Of a stretch of 32,000 bases of DNA, positions 5,153 to 32,000 are shown in pieces. Numbering within the stretch: the stretch's first letter is position 1; each line of letters opens with the position of its first letter. This DNA comes from Candidatus Woesearchaeota archaeon. GTDB lineage: Archaea; Nanobdellota; Nanobdellia; Pacearchaeales; GW2011-AR1. Location: NCBI GenBank assembly GCA_964554415.1, contig CAZKON010000005.1:1-32000 (forward strand), written 5' to 3'. A program made the position numbers and the translations under genes. The notes under the pieces were generated by a model that did not search any database, had not been told where the DNA came from, and saw only the letters and a list, made by a program, of their open reading frames with translations.

Positions 5153-5167
5153 CAGGGGACTCGCAAT

Positions 5168-6117: not shown

Positions 6118-6138
6118 TCCCCCTGTTTGCTATTTGGG

Positions 6139-6179
6139 TATATAATACTTTTGGTATTTCCGTTATTTCCGTTAAATAG
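6139..6179. promoter_or_regulatory. Divergent promoter pair (TATATAATA 6139-6147 for the minus gene; TTAAATAG 6172-6179 for the plus gene)
   Basis: Each box lies about 27 nt from the respective ATG (6117 minus, 6204 plus). The direct repeat TATTTCCGT x2 sits between them. Confidence 0.5.
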
Positions 6180-6203
6180 TAAAGCTACAACACAGCATTA
6201 CCT

Positions 6204-7076: not shown

Positions 7077-7637
7077 ATGTTGCTAGATAAGAATACTCTC
7101 TGCATTTTAGGAGCATTTGCTTCCGATTATACGAAAAAGATCTATGGAAGTGACTTGGCAAAAAAACTGAACATGAATCAAAAGACAGTCTCAAATATTT
7201 TAAATAAGCTCGAGAAAGAGCACATCCTTAAATTCGCAATCGAAGGAAAGAACAAATACTATTACTTCAACAAATTTAATAGTCACATCAGAGAAATTGT
7301 AAAACTCATAGAAATAGGTAGAAAAATAGCGTTTCTAGAAAAATATAAGCACTTACAAGATCTCTTTAAAGAACTGGAAGAGCGATCTAAAGGGATTGTG
7401 GTTATTTTTGGAAGTTACGCGAAGGGTGCGCCTACGAAGAGTTCTGACCTTGACGTTTTTCTGATAGGTTCTTGTTCAAATGTGGAGAATCTGGAAACGC
7501 TCTACAATCTGAAAATAAACATTATATTCTCAGAAAAAAAGAAATTTGATAAAAACGAACCCTTCATCAAAGAAATTATAAAGAGTCATATTGTACTTAA
7601 AGGGGTAGAAGAGTTCGTAGAATTACTATGGCAGTAA
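7077..7637 (+). CDS. wHTH-fused minimal nucleotidyltransferase (MNT-type antitoxin-like)
   Basis: N-terminal winged-helix-like segment (LAKKLNMNQKTVSNILNKLEKEHIL) plus NTase motif GSYAKGAPTKSSDLDVFL. Confidence 0.8.
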   Translation: MLLDKNTLCILGAFASDYTKKIYGSDLAKKLNMNQKTVSNILNKLEKEHILKFAIEGKNKYYYFNKFNSHIREIVKLIEIGRKIAFLEKYKHLQDLFKELEERSKGIVVIFGSYAKGAPTKSSDLDVFLIGSCSNVENLETLYNLKINIIFSEKKKFDKNEPFIKEIIKSHIVLKGVEEFVELLWQ

Positions 7638-8101
7638 CATTGCGCTGGTGCTGTACAAATGAGAATGGGCTTAAGCTCGATACGCCGAGTGAAAACCTTG
7701 CACAAGGATATCTCACACTTGCTGAAAATGCTTTAGGAACCATGAATCGAGAAAGAAACTACAATCGCCAATTTGCGATCTCTGCTTGTTATTATTCTAT
7801 GTATTATGCCTTGTACGCAATTCTCATGAAATTAGGTATCAAATGCGAGATTCATTCATGTACTCTTGAATTCATGAAGAAACTACTCAAAGACTTCTAT
7901 GCTCCAGAAGACATGCAAGCAATTAAGAAAGCATTTGATTGTAGGGAAACTGCACAATACTATGTGGACAGAATCGTCACAAAGGAAGATGAGATGTATA
8001 TTATGGCTCAAGCTCCTCTTTTCATTACTAAATCCAAAGAAATTCTCGCCAAGCTCAACGAGAACGACATTCAGAAAATACGAGACGAGTTAAAAAAGTA
8101 A
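7628..8101 (+). CDS. HEPN domain protein (partner of the MNT)
   Basis: Overlaps the MNT gene by 10 nt. Helical HEPN-like pattern ACYYSMYYALYAILMKLGIKCEIHS. I did not see a clear RxxxxH motif. Confidence 0.7.
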   Translation: MAVTLRWCCTNENGLKLDTPSENLAQGYLTLAENALGTMNRERNYNRQFAISACYYSMYYALYAILMKLGIKCEIHSCTLEFMKKLLKDFYAPEDMQAIKKAFDCRETAQYYVDRIVTKEDEMYIMAQAPLFITKSKEILAKLNENDIQKIRDELKK

Positions 8102-9343: not shown

Positions 9344-12300
9344 TTACGGATTCTCTACATACTCTTCGCCATATCCAAATGTCCCTGACGATGAAGGCTC
9401 TGCCAATATCTGAATACTTCCACTAAATAAATCTGCGTATTTCTTTCCCTGCAAAGCAAGGAGATGATTGTGTATCACAATTGGAAGAGAGAGTGCGTTA
9501 ATCACTGATTCTTCTATGTTGATAATACCGTACTCGCTCACACTCCCGATTTTCTGTACTTGTGTCTCTGTTTTGATACGTATAAAGAATGTGTTACCAA
9601 TCAAATAAATGTCTAGTGGTATCTCTCCAGCATAAACAATATCCGCAGAAACACCATCAGGCGTTTTGCCAGCATGAAGGGAATAAACACCAACATCTTT
9701 TGCTTCACTGGAAGATTTTTCTTTGACTTCTTGATTCAACTCAGGCAGTTTTTCAGTCATGCGCTCTTTTTTCAGCAAATGTATCTCCGCAAGCTGTCGT
9801 GCAATTGCAGAATATACTCTCCCTTCAAGATACAAAAGCTGAGCTTTGTGATAATTCAGATATAATGAATTTCTTACAGTTCCTGCTCTTACAAGGATTG
9901 CCTGAATTTCAGTCAATTCAGATGTAGTAAGATTCCCTCCTCCTCGCGCGCTGAGACTTGTTTCCACATGTTCAACACTGCCCTGAAGCGCGTTAAGTTC
10001 TGTATTCGCCTCTTCTTCTCTTAACAGCACACCTCCTTTCTCCAGATTCTCTCTTTGTACTTTTTCCAGAGCTTGCAGAGTCGCATTTTTAACACCCAGA
10101 TTATTATCAGTGATTGCATTATCAACACTTTTTTTGTCAAGCCAGCACATAACTTTCTCTCCATCACATCGCCCGACAGGAACGAATCGCGTAGGCTCAG
10201 TTCCTGTTCCAGGATTTTCAGTTGCACAAATGCGGACTACTCCTCTTCTATAGATTTCAGGATTAAAAGCTTCCTGTGCTCCCTGTTGCAAATTAGGATT
10301 CAGCAAGGCAGTTGCACTTGTGCTTCCGCTGATGCATTCTTTTTCAGATGTAACAGTGCTTTCCTTGATTTGCTCAGCTACAATTGCATCTCTGACATAA
10401 TTTACTGCAAAACTTGTTGAAACCTGCTTAAACCCGCACTTTTCTTCACCGTTAAGATTAACACAAAGTTCTTGGTATCCTTCAGGAGCAGTGAAATCAC
10501 GAGTCTCATCTCTATAATCCCCTTTCTTTACAAATCCAGAAGCAACCTGAATAATAGGGCTTACAGCATAATATGATGATTGTGGTGGGCTCTTCAGATA
10601 AACTCGGTAATAAGCTCCCTGATCTTTGCCTGCGTATAGGTGATAATAAACTTTGTAGTTTGCAGTAGCAGGTATAGTTACATCACTGTATTTAACACTG
10701 CTAAAGTAAGCATGAAACTGTGGCGGACTGTCAGGAGCTAATACTGTCTTTAGCGATGTAGGTGCCCTCATAGATATAAAGCTCTTGCAGAATTCCCCGC
10801 CAGCTTCCTCAACAGAACGCGCTTGGAATGCCTTAAACGCATTCACACCATATACCTGAGTGAAGTAATTAACAGATTGCTGCATATTCTGCCAGGCACC
10901 CATCACAGTCAGATATTCTCCTCCGCCTCGCACTCCCTGCCCATAAGCAGTCTCAAGCAGTCTTGGCACTAGCACTTTTGCCAGGGGGGCAAGTTGTCTC
11001 CAGAAGAATTCGCAAGTATAAACCGAATAAAGCTGGTCGCAAATTCCGACTAATTGTCCGCTCTTTACGCTCTCTTGTAAGCAATCTCTATGTGCTTTCA
11101 ATATAGAAACATAACTATCTATGCCTGCATGAATGCCAGTAAGGCACACAGGAACCTTCACCTCTGGAAAGTTTGGCATGCAAAGCAGCGTGCTTCCGAT
11201 TATTCCTGACTGCACCACATCCGCAACAGGATACTTCCCCCCGAAATCGCAGCGTGTAGCAGGACAGATAACAGGGTCGCATAAGTTAAATATCAAATTA
11301 CATTCGCCAGGGGACATAAAGTCTTGGCATTGCGCAGCAGGCACGCTTACTGCAGGCTTGCCAACTCTAATGTCTCCAGTTCCTGCAATAGTAACTCTGC
11401 TGTTTCCATGTTGTCTTGCCGCCTGCTCAAGTGCCTCGCGTGCGCGCACAACAAGTGCACGTGCCTCTTCATCGCTCAATCCAGGGAACTTATTCAAAGG
11501 CTGTCCAGTTTGCAGATTTACCATCTCACATACGTCATCGCCTAAACCCTCAAGGAACTGTTCTCTTTTGTTTGCCCCGACATTGCAAAGCCAGAAACTA
11601 GTCGCTCGTCCAGATGCGTCGAAAGCTCCAATGCCCCCGAATGCAGGCAATATCTGTTTTGCAGCAGCATACCATCCACGTTGCAAATCAAAAGGCACAA
11701 TCGCAGGCATACCTTTATAAGGTTCTCTGTCGTAGAATTTTACTTCAGGATTTTCATATTTATTGAAATAAGATAGCTGTTGTTGTGAGTATAATGTACC
11801 TAATCCATACGTATTAGAAAAAGTTGCAGGAGATATTTCATTCAGAGTATCTCCATCATGAATACTATAAACCTCATTTGCTCCGCTGCCCTCTTTCTTC
11901 ATTACGCTCCGTATAGTATATGCTCCATTGCCCGCATCCTGCAAACCAAGAAGGTATGTGCCTCCGCTGTACTGCTTCCCATCTTTAGACGACGCAGGAG
12001 GTACAACAACACTTGCAAGATGAGTCACTCCATCTGCAAAAACCATGTCTGCCTTGCTTCCGCGTTGCACAGCGCTCACAGGAGCAACTTCAACATATCT
12101 CTCTCCTTGGCTTTTCGGCGTTGCAGTAAACGGAGAAGGGAATCCTTGCGCTCTAAGTGATTGTTCAGATTTATATTTCTCCGTCAAAGCATGATTAATG
12201 CTGATGCTTGAGCCGATTGTTTCAAGTCTCTGCTCGACATTTGCCTTAGTGCCGTTAGAGATGCCGCTGTTTTTCTGCAGCAATAAATTTTGATGCAATT

Positions 12301-14851
12301 CACGCAATGAATCATAACTATATTCTCCATCTTCATATCCTCTAGAGTTTGCGAGCAGCTCTTTCACAGGAACAGACCTTACACCTTTAGAGTCTTTGAT
12401 TTGTACCATATCCTCACCATGATTATCAAGCAGATACTGGCGATATTTTGGCACAGACTGGCTTGGCTCAATTGAACTGCTCAAAAATCCCGAAGTTTTA
12501 GGCACGCCTGCCTCGGCTTCTTTGATAGCTGAATTTACTTTCTGAATCTGTGCGTCAGCTATTTGCACATCACGATTTATTTCATCAGCATGCTTGCTAA
12601 AACACGCATCAAGTGATTTTGATGCCCCACTTGATACTTCTACTTGGCATCTGGCAGTCCACCCTTTATCTCCGCGCATTATTTGTTGTCGTGCAAATCC
12701 TGTCCCAGATAAACCAGTCACAAAATTCTTCACAGTCAAAGCACCCGCAGTAGCAAAGCACGCACCTTTCAAGCCAGAGACAACATTCCCGAGAGTGTTT
12801 GAAATCTGCTCCCACTTCCTGATGCTTTCATTTATAGTTGCAATCTTGCTTAATGTTGCATTTGGTGCAAGTTGAATAGCACGTTTTTCAATGCCTATGC
12901 GTATAGTTACATTCGTTCTGGTTTCTGTCCCCCATGCTTGTGGAGTTAAAGTGATTCTGGCAGAACGTTGCACATCAAGGCGTTGCAGAACAACAGGCTG
13001 CCCGCACACTACAACTGATTCACCAATACGCAAAGTAGGTTTGAAGTTCCTCTGAGATTCAGCAGGACAGCTAGTGCTGACAGTTATAAAATCAGACTCA
13101 ATACGCTGAATTGTCAAAGTCCGTTTATTCTTGTCAGTGCTTTGTGGAAGTTCATAAACCGTTCCTGCCTTCACAGTCACAGCTTTTGCTCCGATAGCAA
13201 GTGTTGCACTAGATTGTTCTCTCGGTTCTTCTATTGAAACAATCCTAATAGTTCTGAATCTGCCATTTATATCAACCGCAGAAGCTGCTCTTGAGAAATC
13301 AATATGCTCGCTCCGCGCAATCTCCTGTCTGTATGCTTCACTTTCAGGAGCATTAGGATATGTAGTCACATACATCTGAAGCAAACGCAGGCGCTGCTGC
13401 TCTTTGTTAAGAGTTGTTGCTAATGCAATTGCTTCTGCCAATGCATTCTGCCCATAAGGATTCCTTGCCGCAGAAGCTTTCTCAGCAGGATAATCTCGCG
13501 CTATCTGCTCAAACGCATGCAATGCCTCGCTAAAGTTCCCTTCAACTCCTTGAACCCCTGACCATGATTGATCTATAACAATATCTTCAGGAGCTACATG
13601 ACTCTCTCTCTCAAGCTGTCTGTATGCAATCATTGTTTCCCGCAATTGCTTTGTCATAGCATTATTAATAGCGAGCCTCCACTCTCCACTTGCCCACTGG
13701 TACAACAAATCAGAAGAAGTCAGATTATATTTCACTCCTTCAATTTCTACAAGATATGATTCTCCGTCTCTATAAGGGAAATTCTTTGTCCCATCATTTG
13801 CAACAAATAAGTCAAATGTCGCAGCCCCTTTAGCTCGCAGCTGAAGAACAAGAGTCTCTGAAAGGCAGCGCAAAGTTACGTTTCCGGTTCCAACGCTGGT
13901 GTTATCAAGCCTTATACTGGAAACAGTGCATTGACCATTTAAAATCCTGCTCCCTTCATAAACATCTACTACATCTGTGCTGTTGCTGCTTGTAATAGCT
14001 AGCCTTACTCGAGTCTGGCTGGCTTCATATCCAGTATAATCAACATACAATGCTGCACGGCAATAGCTCTCCGGCACAAATATCTCGCGTGACCTTGTTC
14101 CTTTTTCAACATGAGTAGTAGCAATTTGCCTGTCCCCGCTATAAATTGAAATATCTGCACCGCGCTCATCTGCATTTAATAACCTAATAAAATATTTCCC
14201 GTTCCAGAAGCTTTGGCGCTGGCTTTTATCAGACCATGCAAAATCATTCTGTTCTTCCAGCACAAACTCAGTTCTCCCGATGCCCAGTGCATTGCCTGCA
14301 TCATATTCAAGCCGCCCGCTTAAGTTAACAACTACTGATTCAGGTAATTCGCTTTCTCGTGGCTGCTTTTGAAGAACAATAACAGCATATCCTATATTAT
14401 TCAAAAGTGGGTCCCCCAGCAACCTATTACGAGTCACCAATCCGGCGCGCGCAGGGTGGAATCCAACAGCCACAACACCTTTTGGATACTCTTTATCAAA
14501 TCCAATACTCTTAATTTCTTTTACATTAAGAAGTGGGTTGATTTTTAACGCGTCAATCTGGCAGAATACAGGCACGTTTTGTTCTGCAAGCAAATCGCTT
14601 CTCACAACAGCAGGCTGGCATCCGGCAGGAGCGACCTGCAAGACAAAATCTTCCCGGTTCTTGCACTGAGAAGAATCATCTAAAATAGGCCAATAAGTGT
14701 TTGCCTGCGCACCATAATATGTTTGAAAACTTGCTTGATAGCTCGGTCTCGTCACATAAGTTGCAGAGCTATAAACCTGCGCGTTGGCAAAAACCGTGAA
14801 TAAAACAATAAAAATACAAATCAAAAATAACAGAATCGCATATCTTCTCAT
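9344..14851 (-). CDS. Giant secreted protein (1835 aa), family not recognised
   Basis: Uninterrupted 5.5-kb ORF with a Sec-type signal (ILLFLICIFIVLFTVFANA-QV). Its start overlaps the upstream stop as ATGA. No C-terminal TM segment. Confidence 0.9.
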   Translation of the reverse strand: MRRYAILLFLICIFIVLFTVFANAQVYSSATYVTRPSYQASFQTYYGAQANTYWPILDDSSQCKNREDFVLQVAPAGCQPAVVRSDLLAEQNVPVFCQIDALKINPLLNVKEIKSIGFDKEYPKGVVAVGFHPARAGLVTRNRLLGDPLLNNIGYAVIVLQKQPRESELPESVVVNLSGRLEYDAGNALGIGRTEFVLEEQNDFAWSDKSQRQSFWNGKYFIRLLNADERGADISIYSGDRQIATTHVEKGTRSREIFVPESYCRAALYVDYTGYEASQTRVRLAITSSNSTDVVDVYEGSRILNGQCTVSSIRLDNTSVGTGNVTLRCLSETLVLQLRAKGAATFDLFVANDGTKNFPYRDGESYLVEIEGVKYNLTSSDLLYQWASGEWRLAINNAMTKQLRETMIAYRQLERESHVAPEDIVIDQSWSGVQGVEGNFSEALHAFEQIARDYPAEKASAARNPYGQNALAEAIALATTLNKEQQRLRLLQMYVTTYPNAPESEAYRQEIARSEHIDFSRAASAVDINGRFRTIRIVSIEEPREQSSATLAIGAKAVTVKAGTVYELPQSTDKNKRTLTIQRIESDFITVSTSCPAESQRNFKPTLRIGESVVVCGQPVVLQRLDVQRSARITLTPQAWGTETRTNVTIRIGIEKRAIQLAPNATLSKIATINESIRKWEQISNTLGNVVSGLKGACFATAGALTVKNFVTGLSGTGFARQQIMRGDKGWTARCQVEVSSGASKSLDACFSKHADEINRDVQIADAQIQKVNSAIKEAEAGVPKTSGFLSSSIEPSQSVPKYRQYLLDNHGEDMVQIKDSKGVRSVPVKELLANSRGYEDGEYSYDSLRELHQNLLLQKNSGISNGTKANVEQRLETIGSSISINHALTEKYKSEQSLRAQGFPSPFTATPKSQGERYVEVAPVSAVQRGSKADMVFADGVTHLASVVVPPASSKDGKQYSGGTYLLGLQDAGNGAYTIRSVMKKEGSGANEVYSIHDGDTLNEISPATFSNTYGLGTLYSQQQLSYFNKYENPEVKFYDREPYKGMPAIVPFDLQRGWYAAAKQILPAFGGIGAFDASGRATSFWLCNVGANKREQFLEGLGDDVCEMVNLQTGQPLNKFPGLSDEEARALVVRAREALEQAARQHGNSRVTIAGTGDIRVGKPAVSVPAAQCQDFMSPGECNLIFNLCDPVICPATRCDFGGKYPVADVVQSGIIGSTLLCMPNFPEVKVPVCLTGIHAGIDSYVSILKAHRDCLQESVKSGQLVGICDQLYSVYTCEFFWRQLAPLAKVLVPRLLETAYGQGVRGGGEYLTVMGAWQNMQQSVNYFTQVYGVNAFKAFQARSVEEAGGEFCKSFISMRAPTSLKTVLAPDSPPQFHAYFSSVKYSDVTIPATANYKVYYHLYAGKDQGAYYRVYLKSPPQSSYYAVSPIIQVASGFVKKGDYRDETRDFTAPEGYQELCVNLNGEEKCGFKQVSTSFAVNYVRDAIVAEQIKESTVTSEKECISGSTSATALLNPNLQQGAQEAFNPEIYRRGVVRICATENPGTGTEPTRFVPVGRCDGEKVMCWLDKKSVDNAITDNNLGVKNATLQALEKVQRENLEKGGVLLREEEANTELNALQGSVEHVETSLSARGGGNLTTSELTEIQAILVRAGTVRNSLYLNYHKAQLLYLEGRVYSAIARQLAEIHLLKKERMTEKLPELNQEVKEKSSSEAKDVGVYSLHAGKTPDGVSADIVYAGEIPLDIYLIGNTFFIRIKTETQVQKIGSVSEYGIINIEESVINALSLPIVIHNHLLALQGKKYADLFSGSIQILAEPSSSGTFGYGEEYVENP

Positions 14852-16710
14852 GTGAATACCACCTCTGCTCGTTGCAGTGCAAATAATTCATAATTTGTCT
14901 GAAGCTGCGTCAGCGTTGTTGGTTTAGGTAAGGCAGGCACACTAATCTCCAGTGTTCCCTTTTCTAGTTCTGCAGGAAGAAGATAAGCACTTACACTTCC
15001 TCCGCCAACAAGAGCAGTATCAACCTTTGTTTCAGGCAGGTTAATATCATAACATTGCTCACGAGTTCCTCCAAACAATCCTGCAAAACCTGAACGAGGT
15101 ATAGTTGTGCATTCTCTGCTTGTGCTTGCAGGAATCGTAACGCCTGCATTGCCATATACATAAACAGTAATATTATAAGCACCCTCGCTAAGGCTGACAT
15201 TCTTCACTTCAGGATATACAACGCTGGTAGAGCCAGGACCTTCGAATGAAATAAGAATCAGTCCGGAAGTATTGGTTGCTCCGATAATTTCAACATCAAG
15301 ATTCAAAGTATATACTCTATCAAGAATAATTGTGCTTTCTTGAGAATCTACGCTTGAGAAAATTTGGCGTTGGGAAGCATATCCTTCAGCACTAACAGAA
15401 AGATAACCATTAAGGCATCCTGGAATCACTCCTTCAACACGACCTCCGGCACTCTTCCCAATCTGACAAATCTGATCAAAACAAGCGTATGCAACTTCTG
15501 CACCATCAATCGGCTTAAGCAGCACATCTCGGACATTTACGCTAACTGGTTGCGAAGCAAATGCGCATAGCTCTTCCTGCTCTTGCTCTTCAGCAATAGA
15601 TTGAGGGGATGCTTGTCTTGGAAGATTGTTATCTACACTCACAACCAAAGGAAATTGAAATAACTCATCATCTCTCGAGAGCTGCACCATGACAGGATAA
15701 CTAAAATCATATACAAAATGGTATGGCGCATAGCAAAATCCAAGTACGCCAAGTCCTTGCTGCAAGCCAACAGGTTCAGCAATCATAATTTCTTGTGATG
15801 CTCCGGAAATTTCTGTTTTGCTGGGCCATTTCGTAGAATACAGGAAGCTAACATGGTCATCAACATTATGCTCAACTACAAAATACTTGTTCTGGCTATT
15901 TTGAAGAGTATAATAGTCTCCCTTCATTTTTACAGCCGCAACATTCGCAGCCAGGCCTTCATGTAATTTTGAAACAACATCGCGCGTTTTCCAGACTTTC
16001 GGCGCGCAGCTCGTCTCAACGCCATCAACAGGTGCATAAAGATACAAAACATCACTCGAGTAATTTTCCAAAAAAGCGCTTTTTTGTTCATACTGATAAA
16101 TTGACAAAGCTTGGCTGTATAGTGCTCCAAACCTGCTAGGCACTTTTATGTTATGCGTTGTCCTACGCGAGCTGCCCTTGCTATCGCTCACAACAATATT
16201 TTGATTAATGCGAACACCAATAATATTATCATTAATCTCAATATCAACTTCAGGCAGCCCCATTGTAACATTTACACCCTGCTCTGCAAATATAGAGAAA
16301 TCACATTTCTGGATTGTAGACTCAATATGCTCTGCAAGCTCCTTCTCAATATCCTGCTTTTTAGGCACATTTTCTTTGATTACTCCATTGCTGCTGGGAT
16401 ATTGCCAATAAGGCACAGGAAAACCTAAAAAGTCAAGTTGTGATGAAAAAGGAGCATAATCGCTGCCAGGAATGAAAGAAGGAGTTTTGATGTATCCTCC
16501 CTGCGTTCCGGCAAGAGTTAAAGCTGCGCGCGTTTCTAGAACAACACACTCTTCATAATACTGAAACACCTGATCCGAGACGCGCTCTCCGCCTCTGAAT
16601 TCAGAAAGCTGCCACGCAACTGCCGCAATTCCAATCACTGCAACCAAAACAATAGAAATAATCACAAAAATACTTATCTGCCCTTTCTTCCATTGTATGG
16701 ATAACCTCAT
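14848..16710 (-). CDS. 620-aa extracellular protein with prepilin-like (class III) signal peptide
   Basis: N-terminus MRLSIQWKKGQISIFVIISIVLVAVIGIAAVAW. A beta-sandwich-like segment ...GYLSVSAEGYASQRQIF resembles the CarboxypepD_reg/PEGA pattern. Confidence 0.85.
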   Translation of the reverse strand: MRLSIQWKKGQISIFVIISIVLVAVIGIAAVAWQLSEFRGGERVSDQVFQYYEECVVLETRAALTLAGTQGGYIKTPSFIPGSDYAPFSSQLDFLGFPVPYWQYPSSNGVIKENVPKKQDIEKELAEHIESTIQKCDFSIFAEQGVNVTMGLPEVDIEINDNIIGVRINQNIVVSDSKGSSRRTTHNIKVPSRFGALYSQALSIYQYEQKSAFLENYSSDVLYLYAPVDGVETSCAPKVWKTRDVVSKLHEGLAANVAAVKMKGDYYTLQNSQNKYFVVEHNVDDHVSFLYSTKWPSKTEISGASQEIMIAEPVGLQQGLGVLGFCYAPYHFVYDFSYPVMVQLSRDDELFQFPLVVSVDNNLPRQASPQSIAEEQEQEELCAFASQPVSVNVRDVLLKPIDGAEVAYACFDQICQIGKSAGGRVEGVIPGCLNGYLSVSAEGYASQRQIFSSVDSQESTIILDRVYTLNLDVEIIGATNTSGLILISFEGPGSTSVVYPEVKNVSLSEGAYNITVYVYGNAGVTIPASTSRECTTIPRSGFAGLFGGTREQCYDINLPETKVDTALVGGGSVSAYLLPAELEKGTLEISVPALPKPTTLTQLQTNYELFALQRAEVVFT

Positions 16711-16868: not shown

Positions 16869-16925
16869 GACTATAAAAACCTTTCTTATTTATTAAATAA
16901 GTTAGTTACTTAGTTACTAATTAGC
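16869..16925 (-). promoter_or_regulatory. BRE/TATA (GAAAGGTTTTTATAG on minus) plus upstream palindrome and direct repeats
   Basis: The TATA centre is about 37 nt from ATG 16838, implying a leader of about 10 nt (GGAGAGGGGCGC). Upstream lie a 17-nt palindrome CTTATTTATTAAATAAG (16885-16901) and TTAGTTAC x2 (16902-16917). Confidence 0.5.
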
Positions 16926-16975
16926 AATAACCTGCGTATATCATATACTTTGAAAATTTTTGATTCCTGAGCGCA

Positions 16976-17451
16976 CTCAAGAATGCAATAGTTATCATTC
17001 TTAAGATATTGAAGACTTTGAAAAACCCCTATAGAGAGCTTTGAATAACCCTCCAATTTCGATGTCCCTCGAGGGTCGTCAGAAATCCATGATTTCTGAG
17101 CGCCTCGAGACACCAAGAACTTCTGTTCTTGGATGCATTCAAAAATCAAAGATTTTTGATGATCGGAGATTCTCTTAGTTTCAAAGCGGTTCGATAGAGG
17201 ACTTTGGGGTTTTTCAAAGTCCTCTATAATATAAAAAAACGATGCGCCCTCCGCACCTTAAAACGTTAGAAACTGAAAGTTTCTGAGCGCCTCGAGAATC
17301 GGAGAGTTTCTCAGCCTCGAGAACTACTGTTCTCTACGGCCGTCAAAAACCTCTGGTTTTTGAGGGATGCGGTTTGGGGAGGCGCTCGTTTCATCAGGAA
17401 TTCTGTGAATTCCTGAATGCCATCGAGAATGCGAACGCAGAGCATTCTCGA
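16976..17451. repeat. Dense array of at least 11 short hairpin modules
   Basis: Stems read directly at 16976-17005, 17079-17099, 17113-17132, 17139-17159, 17194-17227, 17266-17286, 17319-17334, 17343-17363, 17394-17416 and 17423-17451. Confidence 0.85.
17030..17227. mobile_element. MITE-like element, copy 1 (imperfect 16-nt inverted termini TATAGAGRRCTTTGAA)
   Basis: The left end TATAGAGAGCTTTGAA and the reverse complement of the right end TATAGAGGACTTTGAA match at 14 of 16 positions. The first ~81 nt are nearly identical to 20026-20106. Confidence 0.45.
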
Positions 17452-17477
17452 GGTTTTGATGTTCAATGTTATATCTT

Positions 17478-17864
17478 TTAAGAAGATACTTTTGGCGTAC
17501 AATCCTGCGGACAATTAAAACTATGTTCTTTTTGTCCGCAGATACCATCACCGCACTTAATACATACACTATCATAAAACATATCTGGTAATCGAACGGA
17601 CCCATCTCCAATGATTTTATATTGTTTTTCTAAAGCATCCTCAACTGCAGTGAGTCCTGTGCAGCAAGGGACATCCTTTACTATTTCTGGAGGAGATACA
17701 CCTTTATAAATTAAATTTTTTTCTCCTTCTTTGGCGCATAATGATGTTTTATTACTTAATGGAAGAGGTTGCGGAAAATTACGATTATCAAAAAATAAAT
17801 ACACACCAACTATAATAAGGACGATAATAAGTGTAAACGATAGAACTACTAATTTATTATTCAT
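17478..17864 (-). CDS. Signal-anchored Cys-rich small protein (128 aa)
   Basis: I moved the start to ATG 17864, which overlaps the upstream stop as ATGA. N-terminal TM LVVLSFTLIIVLIIVGVYLFF. C-terminal motif CIKCGDGICGQKEHSFNCPQDC. Confidence 0.65.
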   Translation of the reverse strand: MNNKLVVLSFTLIIVLIIVGVYLFFDNRNFPQPLPLSNKTSLCAKEGEKNLIYKGVSPPEIVKDVPCCTGLTAVEDALEKQYKIIGDGSVRLPDMFYDSVCIKCGDGICGQKEHSFNCPQDCTPKVSS

Positions 17865-18526
17865 TTTTCTTCCTCTGCAATGCACCGTCCATCTTCGCAG
17901 AGGCATTCTATTTTTTCTGCTGCCACTCCATTTTCATCGCAGTAGTATTCAAATAAAGTATCAGAAGATAAATCTGTTCTTTGTATTGGTATGAACCTAT
18001 TCACAAAACTGAAAGGATACCAACAGAAATCAGCAAGAGTCTTTCTTCCTCCTTTGATAAGAAGCTTCCCCTTTTTATCATACTTTAGCCCACCATCAGT
18101 ATCTGTACAGAGGAAAGCCTCCTTATTCCATAATGAAACAAACACTTGAGGAGTATATCCTACAACCTCTCGTGCAAGAATGACATCAACTTGAAGAATG
18201 ATGCCCTCGTTTACATCACTTATTTTATAAGATGAACCCTCATACATTGTATCTGTAACAAACTCATTCCCTTCTTCATCTCTAATTTTAATCTTAGTCT
18301 TCTTTGAATCAACGTACTCTACAGACACAATAAAATTTTGGTTCTGGACAGTTATTTCTTGAGAATATCCTTCAGAAAGCACTATTCTCGTTGGGGCAGG
18401 ACCAGAAGTATCATTTCTCGAAATTACATTTCCAGTTAGTTTTGGTTTGAGAAGAAAGAGAGAAACTCCAATGAGCAGCACAAGAATTATAAAGAAATGG
18501 ATTTTTCTACCTTTACTTTTTCTCAT
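17861..18526 (-). CDS. Signal-anchored secreted protein (221 aa) with a Cys-rich C-terminal domain (CTDTDGG...EYYC...C.C)
   Basis: The minus-strand TATA (plus 18547-18559) lies about 27 nt from ATG 18526. Hydrophobic N-terminus FFIILVLLIGVSLFLL. Confidence 0.7.
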   Translation of the reverse strand: MRKSKGRKIHFFIILVLLIGVSLFLLKPKLTGNVISRNDTSGPAPTRIVLSEGYSQEITVQNQNFIVSVEYVDSKKTKIKIRDEEGNEFVTDTMYEGSSYKISDVNEGIILQVDVILAREVVGYTPQVFVSLWNKEAFLCTDTDGGLKYDKKGKLLIKGGRKTLADFCWYPFSFVNRFIPIQRTDLSSDTLFEYYCDENGVAAEKIECLCEDGRCIAEEEK

Positions 18527-18731
18527 GATAACGTTAAGTATATCTATCTTTTTATATGTTTGTTTTTTCTCTAAATTATAGCCAAGAAATTTAATAATTG
18601 AATAGTTAGTCGTTAGCTATAGCATGATAGCGTATGCTTAAAAATCACCTTCGTTTTTAATAGAAAAACATTTGGCTCACCTATAGAAAGTTGAAATTCA
18701 ATCCGAAGGTTGAAACCTTTAAGGGTTTCTT

Positions 18732-19784: not shown

Positions 19785-19939
19785 TATATACAAAAGCAGT
19801 AAATATATTTAAATCTTCGTATATAAATTATATACGAGCTTAATCCATTATACCCTCTCGTTCCTCTCTTGCTGCGGAGTTCCTCGGCTAAAGAGCTGCG
19901 GACTTCCTCGCTGCGGAGTCGCTGCGCTAACTCGCCACA

Positions 19940-20010
19940 TGGCCCTGCCCAGAATCGAACTGGGGCTTCGTCCACGTCAAGGATGCGTTCTACCATTAGA
20001 CTACAGGGCC
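19940..20010 (-). tRNA. tRNA-Val (anticodon GAC)
   Basis: Acceptor GGCCCTG/CAGGGCC, T arm CCCAG-TTCGATT-CTGGG, anticodon loop TTGACGT. My hand fold leaves one A.C pair in the anticodon stem and one C.A pair in the D stem. Confidence 0.8.
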
Positions 20011-20025
20011 TTCTTTCTGCAAGCG

Positions 20026-20257
20026 TATAGAGAGCTTTGAATAACCCTCCAATTTCGATGTCCCTCGAGGCTCGTCAGAAATCATGGATTTCTGAGCGCC
20101 TCGAGAATCGGAGATTCTCTTAGTGTCAAGAACCACCCACTGAAGTAGGTGGCGTGTTGTGGTTCTTGAGCACAGTCAAGAATTACGTTTGCGCAATCCC
20201 CCTACTTTAGTTTGTGGTTAAGCAAACGTAATTCTTGATGTTTCAAAGTCCTCTATA
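20026..20257. mobile_element. MITE-like element, copy 2 (same termini as 17030-17227, different internal hairpin cargo)
   Basis: Left end identical to copy 1 for 45 nt. Right end TTCAAAGTCCTCTATA. Interior holds hairpins at 20075-20095 and 20126-20169, and a 17-bp stem at 20176-20192/20222-20238. Confidence 0.45.
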
Positions 20258-20307
20258 ACTATATAGCTAACGACATTAAAATCTGATTGTTTTGTCGTTA
20301 GCTATCA

Positions 20308-20497
20308 AGTGAAAGACGTACAATATTGTTTATTACATTTTGAGTTGAATACTCCGCAGCTTGCTGCTGCTCAAAATGTAATTAGAGAATTCCGTCTTGA
20401 ACCGAGTGCAATACCCCGCAGCTTGCTGCGGAGAGAGCGAAGCGAACGATGGGATGCACGAGGTTAGGAATTCTCTTTATTACTTACGTCTTTCACT
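20308..20497. ncRNA. Candidate structured element or RNA (multi-stem, about 190 nt), strand unresolved
   Basis: Five nested perfect stems. P1 is 20308-20320/20485-20497 (13 bp). P2 is 20332-20344/20370-20382 (13 bp). P3 is 20384-20393/20467-20476 (10 bp). P4 is 20400-20410/20455-20465 with a tandem G.A/A.G. P5 is 20416-20421/20426-20431. Confidence 0.3.
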
Positions 20498-20530
20498 ATA
20501 TATAAGTCTTTTTCTTGAGGCTGAAATAAG

Positions 20531-22081
20531 CTAATCCATGCGTAAAACTAAAGTTCCCTTCCTCACAAGTTTTTTCATCTCAGTTTCAGTTAATTTATAG
20601 GGAGAATGTAATAAAGGCCTGAATTCGATAAAATATGGAGACCCTTTGTTATAATCCGCACATTCTGCCATGCCCAAGCCAGTAGGTAATTTAGCGATGA
20701 GATTGCTGATAACTGCTCCATGTCTTTCTCTTACACGTTTGATATCACCTTCATATCTCGTATGCACCTGTATCTCCGTGCCTATGTTTCCTCTGATAGC
20801 TCCTTTAAAGTCAGTCAGTACCTGTGAAATCATCAGCAATCCAATGCCCCACTTCCTGAATTCACGCACAGCCTGCTCAAGTTTTGTGTATGCCTTTCTA
20901 CCTCCATACTTCGGCAGCAGTCTGTGAACTTCGTCAAGTACAAGCAAGGATTGCAATGAGCCTGATTCTGGCAAGTTAGCACTATAAATCTGACTTAAAG
21001 CAGCATCAATAAATTCATCAACTTTACGGGGAGTCAGCTTATCAAGGCGGAACACAGTCATGCCTTTCATGAAAAGATAATGTATAATGTCAACATGCAT
21101 TGTTGCATCAGTAATTTCAATAACATATGGATTAAACGCTTGAGGAAGTCCAAGACCAAATTTATTATATTTCTTGCGCATACGTTCATCTGTATTCTTC
21201 TTAGCAAATCCCGACCATTGCCCAATCGGATCAAAGACAATAACAGGCAAGCTGCGTTTCAATAATTCTTCAGCAATAACCATCCCTGTAATTGTCTTCC
21301 CGCTTCCAGTACCTCCGGCAATCAAAGTGTGTCTGTTCAATTGCGTATGATCCAGATACGCTTTCTCATCGCTGTCAGCAACAATTCCAACGTATGCATA
21401 TTTTGATTGTGGAAGCGTAAAAAAGTCAGGGAAAGGATACTGGCTGTTTTTCTGTCTCTCTTCGTATTTTTTCTTAAGCAAGCCTTTTCTAAGCCAAAAA
21501 ACATAGTAAACTCCGGCGAATATAACAAAAGAAGCAGCAGCAATGCTAAGAAAGAAAGAAAGATGTTCCTGCAGCCATGGCGTTGCAATCATACGCTCAA
21601 TAGTAATAGGATAAGATATTATAACAGAATTTTGAGAAGTGCTTATATTGACTAAAAAAACATAATTCCCCTCTGGAACAACATCTGGCAATCCCAAACG
21701 GCTTGTTAAAATAAAAGACTCATTCTTGTCAACTCTCTCATCTTTCCGTAGAAAGCTCTGGTTGCTATTCGCGTTAACAATTTCATAAATAAAGATAAAA
21801 GGCTCAGTATTTTCCTGATTCGCACGTGTTACATTAACGCTAAAAAGAATAGCCCTGCCAGGAGAAACTTGAGAGCCGCGGGCAACCTGTAAAGAAACAT
21901 TTGCCAGTACACCTCCCTCCGCATTAGTCAGCACTCCAGTCAAAGAAGATTGAGATTTTGGCTCCAGTGGAAATGATACACGTCCGAATGCTCCAATAAT
22001 TGATGAATTGTACACCCACGCAATAATAAGAATACCTAATATCAAAGTGAAAACAAAAAAAATGATTTTATTTTTTGGCAC
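20531..22081 (-). CDS. Membrane-anchored HerA/FtsK/VirB4-like P-loop ATPase (DUF87-type), 516 aa
   Basis: Walker A IAGGTGSGKT, Walker B LLVLDEVH, RKWGIGLLMISQ block. Two TM segments (residues ~5-25 and ~175-197) flank a predicted external domain of about 150 aa. GTG start preceded by GGTGAG. Confidence 0.85.
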   Translation of the reverse strand: MPKNKIIFFVFTLILGILIIAWVYNSSIIGAFGRVSFPLEPKSQSSLTGVLTNAEGGVLANVSLQVARGSQVSPGRAILFSVNVTRANQENTEPFIFIYEIVNANSNQSFLRKDERVDKNESFILTSRLGLPDVVPEGNYVFLVNISTSQNSVIISYPITIERMIATPWLQEHLSFFLSIAAASFVIFAGVYYVFWLRKGLLKKKYEERQKNSQYPFPDFFTLPQSKYAYVGIVADSDEKAYLDHTQLNRHTLIAGGTGSGKTITGMVIAEELLKRSLPVIVFDPIGQWSGFAKKNTDERMRKKYNKFGLGLPQAFNPYVIEITDATMHVDIIHYLFMKGMTVFRLDKLTPRKVDEFIDAALSQIYSANLPESGSLQSLLVLDEVHRLLPKYGGRKAYTKLEQAVREFRKWGIGLLMISQVLTDFKGAIRGNIGTEIQVHTRYEGDIKRVRERHGAVISNLIAKLPTGLGMAECADYNKGSPYFIEFRPLLHSPYKLTETEMKKLVRKGTLVLRMD

Positions 22082-26561: not shown

Positions 26562-26672
26562 TAACAAAAAAAGTATGCATTCTATTTAAACATTCTCCGC
26601 AATTCACTATAGAGCTATGCTTACGGTAGCGTAAACCGTAAATTTATTAACTCTCGTTTTGCTTGTTTTTTG

Positions 26673-28046
26673 ATGTTAGAGAAGCTTTCTTCTGTTCTGA
26701 AGAAAACAACAGACAAGATAGCGAACGCTATTTTTCTCGACAAAAATTTTGTTGAGCAAATTGTCCGCGATTTACAACGCGCCCTGATTGAGGCAGACGT
26801 AAATGTCGCTCTTGTCCTGGAGCTCACAAAAAAAATCAAGCAGGCAGCCTTGGACGAGCGCATTACAGGATTAGAGAAGAAAGAGCAAATCATCAAACTC
26901 CTGCACGATGAACTTATCAGGATTTTAGGTGAGAAACGCGAGATTAGGCTCAAAGAAAAAGGCAATGTCTTCATGCTGCTTGGCCTCTACGGCTCAGGTA
27001 AAACAACCTCGATAGCAAAACTTGCATCCTATTATGCTAAAAGAGGCACAAAAGTCTGCGCTCTGGGATTGGACGTCCACCGCCCGGCAGCCTCAGAACA
27101 GCTAAAACAATTGTGTGACAAGCTTAATATTCCGGCGTTTATAGCGCCTGAAGAAAAAGACCCAAAGAAAATTTACAAGCACTTCGAACCAGAATTGAAG
27201 AAATATTCGCTGGTTTTAATAGATACAGCAGGTCGTGACGCGCTCTCCTCAGATTTAATAAAAGAAACAAAAGATATTACAAAAATTGCCAAGCCAACAG
27301 AAACCTTTCTTATTATGTCTGCAGATGTCGGACAAACAGCGAAAAAGCAAGCCCAGATATTCAAAGAAGCAGTTACAATCACTGGAGTTATTATTACAAA
27401 AATGGACTCCACTGCCAAGGCAGGCGGTTCTCTAACTGCCTGCGCAGAGGTACAATCTCCTGTAGTTTTCATCGGAGTGGGTGAAAAACCATCTGATTTG
27501 GAAACTTTTGACCCAGAGTCATTTCTTTCTCGTCTCCTTGGTTTAGGCGACTTAAAATCTTTGATGGAAAAAATACAGAGCGTAGTTGACAAAGATAAGA
27601 TTGCAGAACAGCAGAAAAAATTAAATGAAGGTAAATTCACGCTTGACGACTTCGCAGCACAATTAGAGTCAATGAGTAATGTTGGCTCATTTGATAAGTT
27701 ACTCTCGCATTTACCGGGATTTGGAAACTTTAAAGAAAAGTTCAATGAAACTGCTATCCAAAAACAAGAGAACTTAACTAAAGGCTGGAAAGCCGCAATC
27801 AAATCAATGACTCTCGCAGAAAAAGAGAATCCTGAAATAATAGAAAAGCAGACTTCTCGTCTTCAGCGCATTGCAAAAGGTTCCGGCACGTCAACATCAA
27901 ATGTTCGTGCCTTGATAAAACAATATAAACTCTTAAAAGAAGTTATAACATCAGGTATAGACTCAAAGATTGCTGAGCAAGGATCGTTCGACCAAAAAAC
28001 AATGATGAAACTCGCCAGGAAATTTGCGAGAAAAGTGAGGTTGTGA
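26673..28046 (+). CDS. srp54: Signal recognition particle protein SRP54
   Basis: N, G and M domains with GLYGSGKTTS, DTAGR and TKMDSTAKAGG motifs. ATG 26673 is 27 nt from TATA AAATTTATTAA. Confidence 0.95.
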   Translation: MLEKLSSVLKKTTDKIANAIFLDKNFVEQIVRDLQRALIEADVNVALVLELTKKIKQAALDERITGLEKKEQIIKLLHDELIRILGEKREIRLKEKGNVFMLLGLYGSGKTTSIAKLASYYAKRGTKVCALGLDVHRPAASEQLKQLCDKLNIPAFIAPEEKDPKKIYKHFEPELKKYSLVLIDTAGRDALSSDLIKETKDITKIAKPTETFLIMSADVGQTAKKQAQIFKEAVTITGVIITKMDSTAKAGGSLTACAEVQSPVVFIGVGEKPSDLETFDPESFLSRLLGLGDLKSLMEKIQSVVDKDKIAEQQKKLNEGKFTLDDFAAQLESMSNVGSFDKLLSHLPGFGNFKEKFNETAIQKQENLTKGWKAAIKSMTLAEKENPEIIEKQTSRLQRIAKGSGTSTSNVRALIKQYKLLKEVITSGIDSKIAEQGSFDQKTMMKLARKFARKVRL

Positions 28047-28923: not shown

Positions 28924-28934
28924 CATTATAGCTA

Positions 28935-29301
28935 TATCGAATAACTTTAATATTCGTAGTTCTTTAGTTGTTCTACAGATAGGGAATCACATACATATAT
29001 TACGATTATTAATGTGATTCCCTATAACAACATTAAACTTTGACCGTTTTGTTGTCAGCTATCAATGGAAAGACGTACAATATTGGTTGATTACTTACTT
29101 CTCTTTCCCTACACTCAACCCATAAATGCATCTTTTAATAGGGACGATTTTGAGTTATAGCGAATAACTTTAATTTCCTTAGTTGTTTTGTTATTCTATA
29201 GATAGGAAACCTTAGGGATTTGCTAATCCCTGATGGTGCTCAAGAATCTGAGGATTCTTGACATCACATCAGAAATTACGATTATTAAAGTGATTTCCTA
29301 T
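28935..29301. repeat. Two diverged copies of a ~90-nt unit, each ending in a long hairpin; copy 2 carries an internal ~54-nt insertion
   Basis: Shared blocks are CGAATAACTTTAAT (28938/29161), TTAGTTGTT and ATTACGATTATTAA. The copy 1 hairpin is 28979-28992/29012-29025 (14 bp, perfect). Confidence 0.7.
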
Positions 29302-32000
29302 AATCGCGCCCGCATAGGAAGACTATGACGCTTTCGCAAAGTTAGTACAATTATCGTAGCTACTATGCCTGCGAGAAGCACAACTGCAAGTATAATCCAA
29401 GTCCATGTTAAAATGAACATATCATTACTCTCTTCAGACGTACTTGTCCCAGGTATAGTTGGACGAATCTGACGCACAGTCTTATTTCCAGGCCCAGGTA
29501 TCGTGCATACACGCGTCTCTGGCGCAGGCTTATTAAGCGTTGAGTTGCATGCACGAGTATCAATGCACGTCTTATTTTGTTTGCCATTTACGCAAGTACC
29601 AAATGTACACTGCCATTGTGCTCTGCATGGCGCAAAGTCGCCTCCACCACCACCTCCACCACTAACTACTTGAGGTGCATTGCCTCCAGGAGGTGGCTGA
29701 GGCGCAGAACAAGCGCCGCAATCAGCAGAACAAACTGAACAACTCTCACCAAGCTTTTCCTGACAGACTCTATTACCACAGACAGGCGCTTCAGTAATCT
29801 CAAAGGTAGAGAAATTTGTGACATTTACAATGAGAATTCCTAATGTTTTATTGTAAAGAATGGATGTGCAAATCTGTTGCGTGCAAGGCTTACCATTATA
29901 CAAAACTAAAGGACGCTCAAGCTCAACTTCCCAGAATACAACTTGTGCGCGTCTGTTCAGAAGAGGTAGTTTCTCACTTAATACCTTAACCTTATTAGCT
30001 CCAAACAAAAGAGAACGAAGCAGCAAGGAACTTTGTGTCTGTAATTGTTCAACACTCAGACTTTCATTATATACTATAGCAGCAGGATATTTTTTGCTCA
30101 AAATTACAGTACCTTGGGGCTCCAAGCCATTATCTCCACCTGAAAAAGCCTCAATTTCAAAATCAGCAATAGGATAACACTCAGCACATGCAGAATGGAT
30201 TGAATCTCGGCGATACATTGTCCATGTTTCTTCTTCAGATGTTGCAGAACTGTTAATATCCCAGACATATAGTGATCCACGTCTAAGAGGTTGATTGTTT
30301 GCAGCATTTATATCAAAAGAAGATGTACCTACAAGTTCAGCTTTGCCATCACCATCAAGATCAGCAACGACAGGAGATGCGACGCTTAAATACTGTGTTC
30401 CCTTAGGGAATCCAGCGACAAGCGTGCCATTTGCATGCCAGGCAAACACTCCTCCATTTTTGACATGCTTCTCATTTTTATCTACATAAGTCGCATCAAT
30501 AACAGTATTGCCGTTGGCAACAAGTATATCTTGCCTGCCATCTCCGCTGACATCTGCAATAGTGGGCCCATATTCAACAGCAAGTGCGGGAGAGGGCACT
30601 TTCTGAGGCCACCCTGCAACAGAAGTGCCATTTGCATGGCGTAAATCAACTAAATATTCATCAATATAACTCCCCGCAGTTAGTGTAGCAATCTCAATAT
30701 CAGAAGTGTCATCCACATTAACTAGTGCGGATGAGCCAACAGGATAACGCGCTACTGCATGATATCCAGTATGTTTAACAAAACCAAGCGATTGTGGATA
30801 ACCTTGGTAAAGAGTCCCATTGCCATGAAGCACGTAAAGCAAACCATCGATACGAGATAAGTTTTCCTCATCTTTACCGAGAGACATAATTCCTCCCACG
30901 ACAATATCATCTTTTCCATCTCGATTGAGGTCACCAACAACAGGCACGTAATTATTTGTAGGGTAAATCGGCAGGATAACAGGCCATCCTGGAACCACAG
31001 ACCCATCTGCGTTATAGACAATGATGGTTGCATTAATAGTTTCATAATCATAAATTGGAGCAACTGCAACAACAATCTCAAGTTCAGGATCATCATCAAA
31101 ATTGCCGACTGCAGGAGAGTATATCCCAAGAAAAGAAGACTGAGGAATAGCCCACTGGTTCACAATCTCAGTTCCCCTAATAATGCTAAGAGTTTCATTC
31201 GCTCCGGAAGGAACACCATTGCTCTGAACAATAATTTCATTTTCCAAATCACGGTCAAGATCAGCAACAACAAAACGAGGATAAATAGAAGTAGGAATCT
31301 CAATTGGCCAGCCATCTACAAGATAGCCTGCGGCGTTTAGCGCATAAAGTCTTGTAAGAATAGGACTAAGAGTTGCTGGCTTAATTGGAGTAATACTAAC
31401 GAGAATCTCATCGCGTGCATCATCCGTAATATCTCCAAGAACAGGTACGCTGAATGAAGATATCCCAACATTTCCTGCTGTCAAATCTCTCCCTACATCC
31501 GTTGACCAAACAAGAGAGCCATCTGCACGATAAACAAAGACAGTAGTATAAGGATCATAACCATAGCGTCCACGATAAATAATAATTTCCTGTCCGGAAT
31601 CCTCAACTAAATTACTCACGACAGGAACAAAGTCTCCTGCATATATACTCCCAACCTCGCCATAAGATAACGGCTGAGGGAAACCAGGGCGAAGTGTCGG
31701 ATCAAATAATAATCTGGTTTGGTTCTCAACAATTTCATGCTCTTGATAAATCAAACGAGCTTGAATATCATAAAGTCCTGCTTCACTAATGAAAGATGTA
31801 TTTAAGAAAAATCTCTGCTCTCGTGCTCCGAGATTATTACACAATTCCCGAGGAGCGGGCTTATATTCCTGACCTTTTGCAGGATTACATGATAAGAGAT
31901 GTGTAGTGCTCCAAGCATCTGTTCCAGTAGGACGATATTCAAGAGAATAACCTTTAATTTTCTCACGACTGGAAACAGAAGGATGGACACCGATAGACAG
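29298..32000 (-). CDS. FG-GAP/VCBS-repeat surface protein with a Cys-rich stalk and C-terminal TM anchor; 5'-partial (runs off the window)
   Basis: Repeated D.(D/N).DG..(D/E)I motifs (VADLDGDGKAELV, IADVSGDGRQDILV, VGDLNRDGKDDIVV). Gly run and C-terminal TM WIILAVVLLAGIVATIIVL. The frame stays open from 31845 to 32000, and the tracked 'M' at 31844 is a TTG. Confidence 0.85.
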   Translation of the reverse strand: MSIGVHPSVSSREKIKGYSLEYRPTGTDAWSTTHLLSCNPAKGQEYKPAPRELCNNLGAREQRFFLNTSFISEAGLYDIQARLIYQEHEIVENQTRLLFDPTLRPGFPQPLSYGEVGSIYAGDFVPVVSNLVEDSGQEIIIYRGRYGYDPYTTVFVYRADGSLVWSTDVGRDLTAGNVGISSFSVPVLGDITDDARDEILVSITPIKPATLSPILTRLYALNAAGYLVDGWPIEIPTSIYPRFVVADLDRDLENEIIVQSNGVPSGANETLSIIRGTEIVNQWAIPQSSFLGIYSPAVGNFDDDPELEIVVAVAPIYDYETINATIIVYNADGSVVPGWPVILPIYPTNNYVPVVGDLNRDGKDDIVVGGIMSLGKDEENLSRIDGLLYVLHGNGTLYQGYPQSLGFVKHTGYHAVARYPVGSSALVNVDDTSDIEIATLTAGSYIDEYLVDLRHANGTSVAGWPQKVPSPALAVEYGPTIADVSGDGRQDILVANGNTVIDATYVDKNEKHVKNGGVFAWHANGTLVAGFPKGTQYLSVASPVVADLDGDGKAELVGTSSFDINAANNQPLRRGSLYVWDINSSATSEEETWTMYRRDSIHSACAECYPIADFEIEAFSGGDNGLEPQGTVILSKKYPAAIVYNESLSVEQLQTQSSLLLRSLLFGANKVKVLSEKLPLLNRRAQVVFWEVELERPLVLYNGKPCTQQICTSILYNKTLGILIVNVTNFSTFEITEAPVCGNRVCQEKLGESCSVCSADCGACSAPQPPPGGNAPQVVSGGGGGGGDFAPCRAQWQCTFGTCVNGKQNKTCIDTRACNSTLNKPAPETRVCTIPGPGNKTVRQIRPTIPGTSTSEESNDMFILTWTWIILAVVLLAGIVATIIVLTLRKRHSLPMRARL

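Follow-up and report, generated by a model that had tools for sequence, protein, structure and literature searches.

A hairpin repeat occurs twice in the 32,000-nt stretch of archaeal DNA analysed here (the window), once uninterrupted near 29.0 kb and once, near 20.3 kb, split by extra DNA that folds into stable helices. What is this extra DNA, and what would have placed it inside the repeat? A preliminary description of the window saw in it a possible expressed structured RNA delivered by a mobile module. The mobile module is borne out by ends homologous to the ends of tnpA-linked IS200 elements; of a new RNA gene there is no sign, and the insert is a well-known kind of selfish DNA. From its sequence, 20334-20480 very probably descends from a tnpA-only (IS200-type) element of the IS200/IS605 family and has no gene of its own. 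It would thus be a non-autonomous element of the kind known as PATE (palindrome-associated transposable element) or MITE, whose top strand, carrying both end hairpins, is the + strand of the window.

The insertion site and its surroundings

The host sequence at 20.3 kb is a two-hairpin repeat unit composed of H2 (20263-20305, ATAGCTAACGACA...TGTCGTTAGCTAT) and H1 (20308-20497), the latter closed by a perfect 13-bp stem with arms at 20308-20320 and 20485-20497. A paralogue of the H2-H1 unit lies at 29025-29112, and its H1 is free of insert. Self-comparison of the window aligned 20268-20331 with 29025-29088 at 84% identity over 64 nt, and the two repeats share an exact 18-mer for which 0.02 matches are expected by chance. 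The repeat reported in the preliminary description is therefore real, but the 85-90% identity given there for 20287-20336 is too high, since an ungapped comparison with the 29-kb copy (offset 8757) yields 39 identical positions of 50 (78%). A gapped alignment of the whole module gives 73 of 95, and a 1-nt indel between the copies moves the earlier 29-kb coordinates by one base. When the 18-mer was compared with GTDB representative genomes, only six chance matches in unrelated taxa were obtained, which marks the host repeat as specific to this lineage.

At 29 kb, ...GGTTGATTAC (...GATTAC) passes directly into TTACTTCTCTTTCC. The additional DNA at 20.3 kb, absent at 29.0 kb, amounts to 147 nt, that is, the 139 nt originally reported plus one copy of the 8-mer TTTATTAC, which is present at 20329-20336 and again at 20476-20483. 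The proposal of a filled and an empty site thus holds for a paralogous pair, and the extra DNA is confirmed at a somewhat greater length. The 8-mer, the TATA-like ACTATATAG (20258-20266) and the T5 run (20509-20513), the last two read on the + strand, all lie where they had been placed. The insertion target is the 17-nt loop of H1, which contains TTTAT; the corresponding site of the empty paralogue (29087-29094) reads TTGAT|TAC and not TTTAT|TAC.

The insert adjoins a gene for a HerA-like ATPase (516 aa; 20531-22081, minus strand), whose closest named relatives in Pacearchaeota, Nanoarchaeota and Woesearchaeota identify the window as DNA of a DPANN archaeon; a reading as cyanobacterial small dispersed repeats was rejected on this ground. 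Syntenic relatives from groundwater metagenomes (L002-L006; loci are given L numbers throughout) show 85% amino-acid identity and the same gene order, HerA followed by tRNA-Val(GAC), with a much shorter spacer that holds no copy of the insert. The ancestral BRE/TATA of tRNA-Val (CAAGAAAAAGACTTATATATA; 20498-20518, minus strand) lies outside the element, ~487 nt from tRNA-Val, and its 20-mer at 20498-20517 matches L002, L003 and L004 exactly, standing there 25 nt upstream of tRNA-Val, as the BRE/TATA CAAGAAAAAGACTTATATA does in L002 and L006. In the window tRNA-Val(GAC) is separated from this ancestral promoter (19940-20518, minus strand), and 20027-20497 forms a lineage-specific hairpin-repeat block that includes the insert. 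The tRNA-proximal end of the block puts TTATTCAAA at positions -35 to -27, where it might act as a substitute TATA box. Directly 3' of tRNA-Val is a 118-nt insertion (19818-19935), missing from L002 and L006, which contains the motif CTCCGCAGC three times (minus strand), terminates with the palindrome TCGTATATAATTTATATACGA, and has no match to the covariance model R1 described below.

Several further families of short repeats were observed in these genomes. A dozen short intergenic hairpins of the form TCARRAA...TTYYTGA, often linked by GCGC or GTGC, occupy 609-652, 1845-1890, 17079-17159, 17343-17451, 20075-20238 and 29240-29261, and this type also occurs inside the gene-less elements of L119 and L067. 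An 81-nt direct repeat (17030-17110 and 20026-20106, 95% identical) begins with TATAGAGAGCTTTGAATAAC; one of its copies abuts the tRNA-Val leader, and the motif TATAGAGRRCTTTGAA occurs four times. Two copies of a ~100-nt hairpin-containing repeat (28930-29027 and 29153-29303) are 82-88% identical, the second having a hairpin loop enlarged by ~55 nt, among them a TCAAGAATC hairpin, and hence representing another nested loop insertion. The HerA-tRNA-Val spacer of L002 (11622-11929) contains a chain of six 44-47-nt hairpins, four of them missing from L006, with stems that begin TAGAGAAYT, TAGACAATT or similar; this chain seems to represent a distinct family of very small palindromic elements within the lineage.

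Other differences from the relatives concern genes. The SRP54/Ffh protein of the window (26670-28046) has 458 aa and its L002 orthologue (3197-6334) 1045 aa; the latter contains an intein with a LAGLIDADG endonuclease, so that the intein is polymorphic (present or absent). About 1.8 kb at 16921-18731, with hairpin chains and two ORFs (221 and 142 aa) that gave no Pfam match, is missing from syntenic L002 and may likewise have been inserted as an element. A nucleotidyltransferase/HEPN (MNT-HEPN-like) gene pair is found at 7077-8101, and 9344-16710 holds two large adjacent ORFs (1835 and 620 aa) without a Pfam match that are conserved in relatives.

Subterminal hairpins and their link to tnpA

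Terminal inverted repeats are absent from the ends of the insert, which instead has a subterminal hairpin near each end, both on the + strand. Two of its segments, 26 nt long and 88% identical (20342-20367 and 20404-20429), each consist on that strand of AATA followed by a CYCCGCAG-CTTG-CTGC hairpin, so that AATA-CCCCGCAG-CTTG-CTGCGG appears twice in the same orientation. Directly 5' of the left end, in host DNA, stands the target motif TTTAT (TAM; 20329-20333, + strand), separated by a 14-nt spacer from the putative left-end guide AATA (20348-20351). The left hairpin that follows, CTCCGCAG-CTTG-CTGCTGCT (20348-20371 together with the guide, + strand), is degenerate, with mismatches at two of eight stem positions. 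Around it lies a perfect 13-bp stem, ATTACATTTTGAG/CTCAAAATGTAAT (20332-20344/20370-20382), that also appears in predicted folds; an equivalent left-flank stem was found in L073 and L016.

The right-end module (20384-20476, + strand) is built around a core at 20410-20455, consisting of a putative guide AATA (20410-20413), the hairpin CCGCAG-CTTG-CTGCGG (20416-20431) and an extension, AGAGAGCGAAGCGAACGATGGGAT. An inner stem (20401-20409/20456-20464) and a 10-bp outer stem (20384-20393/20467-20476) enclose this core, and the element's own terminal TTTAT (TEM; 20476-20480, + strand) closes the sequence. Read through, the window copy is TTTAT|TACATTTTGAGTTG-AATACTCCGCAGCTTGCTGCTG-CTCAAAATGTAATT-AGAGAATTCC-GTCTTGA-ACCGAGTGC-AATACCCCGCAGCTTGCTGCGGAGAGAGCGAAGCGAACGATGGGAT-GCACGAGGT-TA-GGAATTCTCT-TTAT|TAC.

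The 20-mer AATACYCCGCAGCTTGCTGC, which occurs twice in the insert, was detected in >120 metagenome contigs from many anoxic habitats, the count being a lower bound. Many of these matches lie at contig ends, as is typical of repeated mobile DNA; a CRISPR repeat, which might be suspected from the same observation, was rejected because spacing and flanks do not fit and tnpA adjoins the motif. To identify neighbours, all ORFs within 3.5 kb of the 20-mer were clustered for the 124 matches listed. Among these matches, the only recurrent neighbour was an ORF starting 2-120 nt downstream of the motif, an IS200-like Y1_Tnp transposase (PF01797, E=2.8e-32), and no TnpB- or IscB-like cluster was found beside the motif, tnpA alone recurring. 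By tblastn, at least 14 loci have the Y1 transposase gene next to the motif, and the same hairpin returns just past the tnpA stop codon. Among named proteins, these TnpA sequences are related to transposases of the IS200/IS605 family from Methanothrix and Methanosarcina; the TnpA subtype whose ends are nearest to those of the window has its named relatives in Nanoarchaeota, Woesearchaeota and Pacearchaeota.

The similarity to tnpA-bearing ends is close on both sides. In L133, a Pacearchaeota MAG (GCA_023142835.1), the left end reads TTTAT|TCCCCTTTGGGTG-AATACCCCGCAGCTTGCTGCG...tnpA and agrees with window positions 20329-20367 at 33 of 39 sites, TTTAT included; its right end shares 39 of 45 positions with the right core of the window. 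The right end of L134, a Woesearchaeota MAG (GCA_030753365.1), is ATACCCCGCAGCTTGCTGCGGAGTGAGCGTAGCGAACGGTGGGTAT, identical to 20411-20455 at 42 of 46 positions. Furthermore, the window left end has a 31-nt match to the tnpA-bearing left ends of L019 and L085, and its right core has 44-46-nt matches to L043 and L067. In the autonomous DPANN copies (L133, 1925-1975; L134, 478-530) the tnpA frame reads through the right-end hairpin and stops at a TGA within the GAGTGAGCG extension, giving a TnpA C-terminus …TPQLAA. The hairpin thus encodes the C-terminus of the transposase in addition to serving as its predicted binding site, which may explain its extreme conservation.

The insert itself contains no ORF, and a tblastn search of the 32-kb window for tnpA gave no match. 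No second copy was found in the window or in 60 kb of its relatives, no identical copy in any dataset searched, and no match by BLAST in plasmid and phage collections. Related copies do exist in other contigs, as the preliminary description had anticipated for a mobile module. Gene-less examples are L073, L016, L083, L084/L109, L099, L057/L094, L119, L107, L025, L110, L043 and L067, and the succession of left and right ends in 20334-20480 equals that in L057/L094, L119, L073, L043 and others. The window copy combines those defining features of PATEs that can be read from sequence: end hairpins on one strand, homology linked to tnpA, a TAM at the left end and zero coding capacity.

Folding and covariation of the insert

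Folding z-scores relative to shuffled sequences were -6.4 (+) and -8.1 (-) for RNA, and -6.1 and -6.2 on the two strands for DNA. Both strands fold equally, far beyond chance, and the helices are therefore palindromes at the DNA level. The "five nested perfect helices" of the preliminary description are stable helices indeed, but not all of them are nested: the left and right stems stand side by side within the 13-bp host stem (20308-20320/20485-20497). The inner right stem carries the G.A/A.G mismatch. The nested look results from the position of the element in the loop of another small palindromic repeat.

For the right end a covariance model (R1) was built, which had a single match in the window (20385-20480, 84 bits, E=2.6e-21), none in the relatives L002 and L006, and many in metagenome loci. 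MAFFT misplaced the right-end stems, and pairs were counted by hand and on an alignment fitted to R1, which for that reason leans towards the model. On this model-fitted alignment, 87% of stem cells were paired, compared to 60% in shuffles and 35-56% with slid partners, and double-change cells numbered 536, compared to 185 in shuffles. An independent hand table likewise shows covariation in both right-end stems, with outer stems such as GAAATTGCT/AGCAATTTC, GAGATTGCT/GGCAATCTC, GAAAATGCT/GGCATTTTC and GAAGTTGCT/GGCAACTTC. Between the window (AGAGAATTCC/GGAATTCTCT) and L043 (GAAAATCC/GGATTTTC), the stem sequences are wholly different and the pairing is kept. The covariation that the preliminary description had called for among related copies is thus present in both right-end stems.

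Such strong covariation could also indicate a functional structured RNA, omega-RNA-like or regulatory, that makes up the element or part of it and is transcribed from the + strand as far as the T5 run, with the TATA-like motif upstream. Both stems are absent from autonomous DPANN copies and present in gene-less DPANN copies, PATEs have been reported to often encode omega-RNAs (PMC10055086), and G.T wobbles exceed A.C on the top strand (139 vs. 66). This excess fits folding of the top strand in the modelled alignment, but an RNA-based aligner may inflate it, and single-stranded top-strand DNA accounts for the same asymmetry. The window copy, moreover, folds equally well on both strands, and the absence of a TnpB- or IscB-like cluster among the 124 motif matches listed, where only tnpA recurs, speaks against such a product. 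Rfam, searched with gathering cutoffs and again at E<=10, yielded tRNAs only, the best other match reaching ~22 bits against thresholds of 46-90, so that no family was assigned to the insert. Nor does the tandem G.A/A.G in the inner right stem (20404-20405/20460-20461) help the case. Kink-turn and loop-E motifs likewise have such a tandem in a helix, but the site is a symmetric 2x2 mismatch that lacks the 3-nt bulge, it is confined to the window copy, and the inner stems are perfect in all six homologous right ends compared (L043, L057, L119, L025, L107 and L110). Judged from these sequences, the copy is decaying and has two mispaired positions here rather than a kink-turn or loop-E motif, contrary to the preliminary description. 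We consider an RNA function of the element improbable: the hairpins are of the type recognized by IS200-type Y1 transposases, which explains the structure with no need for an RNA product.

A narrower question is whether the two right-end stems serve a function beyond TnpA recognition, as + strand RNA or as DNA structure, to which we assign only a slight chance, further weakened by the lack of a TnpB/IscB partner among the 124 motif matches listed. As RNA, the stems might be guide-like or antisense to the long tRNA-Val leader; as DNA, they might let a tnpA-less symbiont genome borrow a transposase.

Boundaries, proposed mechanism and known relatives

With the insert read as a gene-less IS200-type element, its boundaries follow from the architecture of the family. 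Long-type gene-less copies begin with TTTAT, ~14-16 nt and an AATA-hairpin, continue through a variable middle to the 5' arm of the outer stem, a short linker and the 5' arm of the inner stem, and then comprise a second AATA-hairpin (with or without GAGWGAGCGAAGCGAACGAT), GGGAT, the 3' arm of the inner stem, a single A, the 3' arm of the outer stem and TTTAT. Every long-type copy has this TTTAT right after the outer stem, and the window copy matches the layout part for part. In 45 (43%) of the 104 distinct contexts drawn from the 20-mer matches listed, 8-17 nt separate the end of a TTTAT from the AATA that follows, compared to 2.9% at random positions. Downstream of the 20-mer, the end of a TTTAT is reached after 12-16 nt in the short type and after 46-51 nt in the long type; the window spacings are 14 nt upstream and 51 nt downstream. 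An identical 159-nt copy is found at two loci with unrelated flanks, L057 and L094, with no duplication beyond TTTAT.

The 8-nt repeat at the window site had been likened to a target-site duplication. Since family copies are flanked by TTTAT and those of L057 and L094 show no further duplication, five of its nucleotides are here read as the target TTTAT plus the element's terminal TTTAT, the further TAC matching by chance. Placing the boundary at TTTAT|TAC keeps 11 of the 13 bp of the left stem within the element. The boundary used before underlies another reading, a classical cut-and-paste MITE with terminal inverted repeats and an 8-bp duplication of TTTATTAC, for which the exact 8-nt repeat around 139 nt speaks. 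That boundary, however, requires 5 of the 13 bp of the left stem to pair host with element DNA by chance, and the termini it defines are not inverted repeats (ATTTTGAG... vs. ...GGAATTCTC). All relatives have TTTAT at their flanks, not duplications that vary in sequence, and the hairpins belong to elements of Y1 transposases, which make no target-site duplication (PMC5027513); this reading is accordingly very unlikely. Equally unlikely is an origin from several separate insertions, or local inverted duplications, of mini-hairpins with no relation to one another, for although window spacers are full of 40-60-nt hairpins, some with loop insertions (29153-29303 vs. 28930-29027), and L002 holds its chain of six 44-47-nt hairpins, we rejected such a pile of 45-nt units because the full arrangement, both ends and both stems, is found again as one unit in contigs that are unrelated, with the same transposase hairpin in the same orientation in both halves.

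The IS200-derived reading has its own points against it. The flanking repeat is 8 nt rather than 5 (a chance match of TAC has a probability of ~1/64), the distance from the right core to the terminal TTTAT is 51 nt as opposed to 12-16 nt in the short type, and the left hairpin has two mismatches. The lack of tnpA in the window, and of a second copy there or in 60 kb of relatives, counts against it as well. Given this degenerate hairpin, the copy at 20334-20480 is probably immobile by its sequence, and the two mismatches together with the lack of tnpA within 32 kb suggest a fossil once mobilized in trans.

If the element behaves like IS608 and ISDra2, a Y1/HUH TnpA provided in trans would bind the hairpins on the single-stranded top strand, and the AATA guides would pair with the TTAT of TTTAT motifs, a pairing that is compatible by sequence position by position, as is that of AAAG with TTAC in IS608 (PMC5027513). 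The enzyme would then cut on the 3' side of both TTTAT motifs, the flanking one and the one that ends the element, releasing a single-stranded circle to be pasted 3' of another TTTAT with no target-site duplication. It has been published for this family that insertion takes place 3' of a tetra- or pentanucleotide, that a guide sits 5' of the foot of the hairpin and that no target site is duplicated, and PATEs have likewise been described (PMC5027513, PMC10055086). The scarless empty allele at 20333|20334 would accordingly read …GTTTAT|TACTTACG…. The 17-nt loop of H1 would hold its TTTAT single-stranded, but targeting of hairpin loops is only a guess, since duplex DNA just 3' of the target hampers IS608 integration in vitro (PMC5027513). 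GC skew, inspected for lagging-strand orientation, is negative across the region but confounded by gene-strand bias.

A candidate novel structured RNA thereby gains a concrete and ordinary identity. The consensus (TTTAT target, AATA guide, CCCCGCAG-CTTG-CTGCGGGG and an optional double-stem right end) can be used as a masking model, which is of modest value for the annotation of DPANN genomes, where IS200-derived PATEs are not catalogued. The same hairpin in methanogen and DPANN IS200 copies could mark gene flow between them. IS200/IS605 elements dominate in archaea (PMC13343696) and DPANN genomes (Woesearchaeota) have been reported to be unusually dense in MITEs (PMC11602168); with these observations and PATEs themselves already published, only a further member is added here.

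The nearest known system is the tnpA-only IS200 group of Pacearchaeota, Woesearchaeota, Methanothrix and Methanosarcina, which has the same subterminal AATA-hairpin at both ends, on one strand, and TTTAT directly 5' of the left end, as in the window element. The latter differs in lacking tnpA (147 nt vs. ~0.6-0.7 kb), in its decayed left hairpin, and in a right core that is wrapped in two covarying stems and ends with TTTAT, whereas autonomous copies end with a TTCAT-like sequence. REP/BIME sequences and their RAYT (TnpA-REP) offer a looser parallel, as they too combine a short hairpin after a conserved tetranucleotide, a Y1 HUH enzyme and structured intergenic DNA. REPs, however, are 20-40-nt units tied to one domesticated RAYT gene, without a pair of left and right ends or TAM/TEM, while the window hairpin is that of genuine multi-copy IS200 elements, in which tnpA lies between the two ends. 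PATEs of Haloquadratum walsbyi (PMC3119063) and PATE-like elements of Geobacillus stearothermophilus (PMC10055086) are likewise gene-less and intergenic, have IS200/IS605-type ends and are presumed to be mobilized in trans by TnpA. Described PATEs are mostly kin of tnpB-carrying (IS1341/IS605-type) elements and often keep an omega-RNA, whereas the window element derives, in our reading, from the tnpA-only IS200 group of DPANN archaea, with tnpA and no TnpB partner beside its motif among the matches listed.
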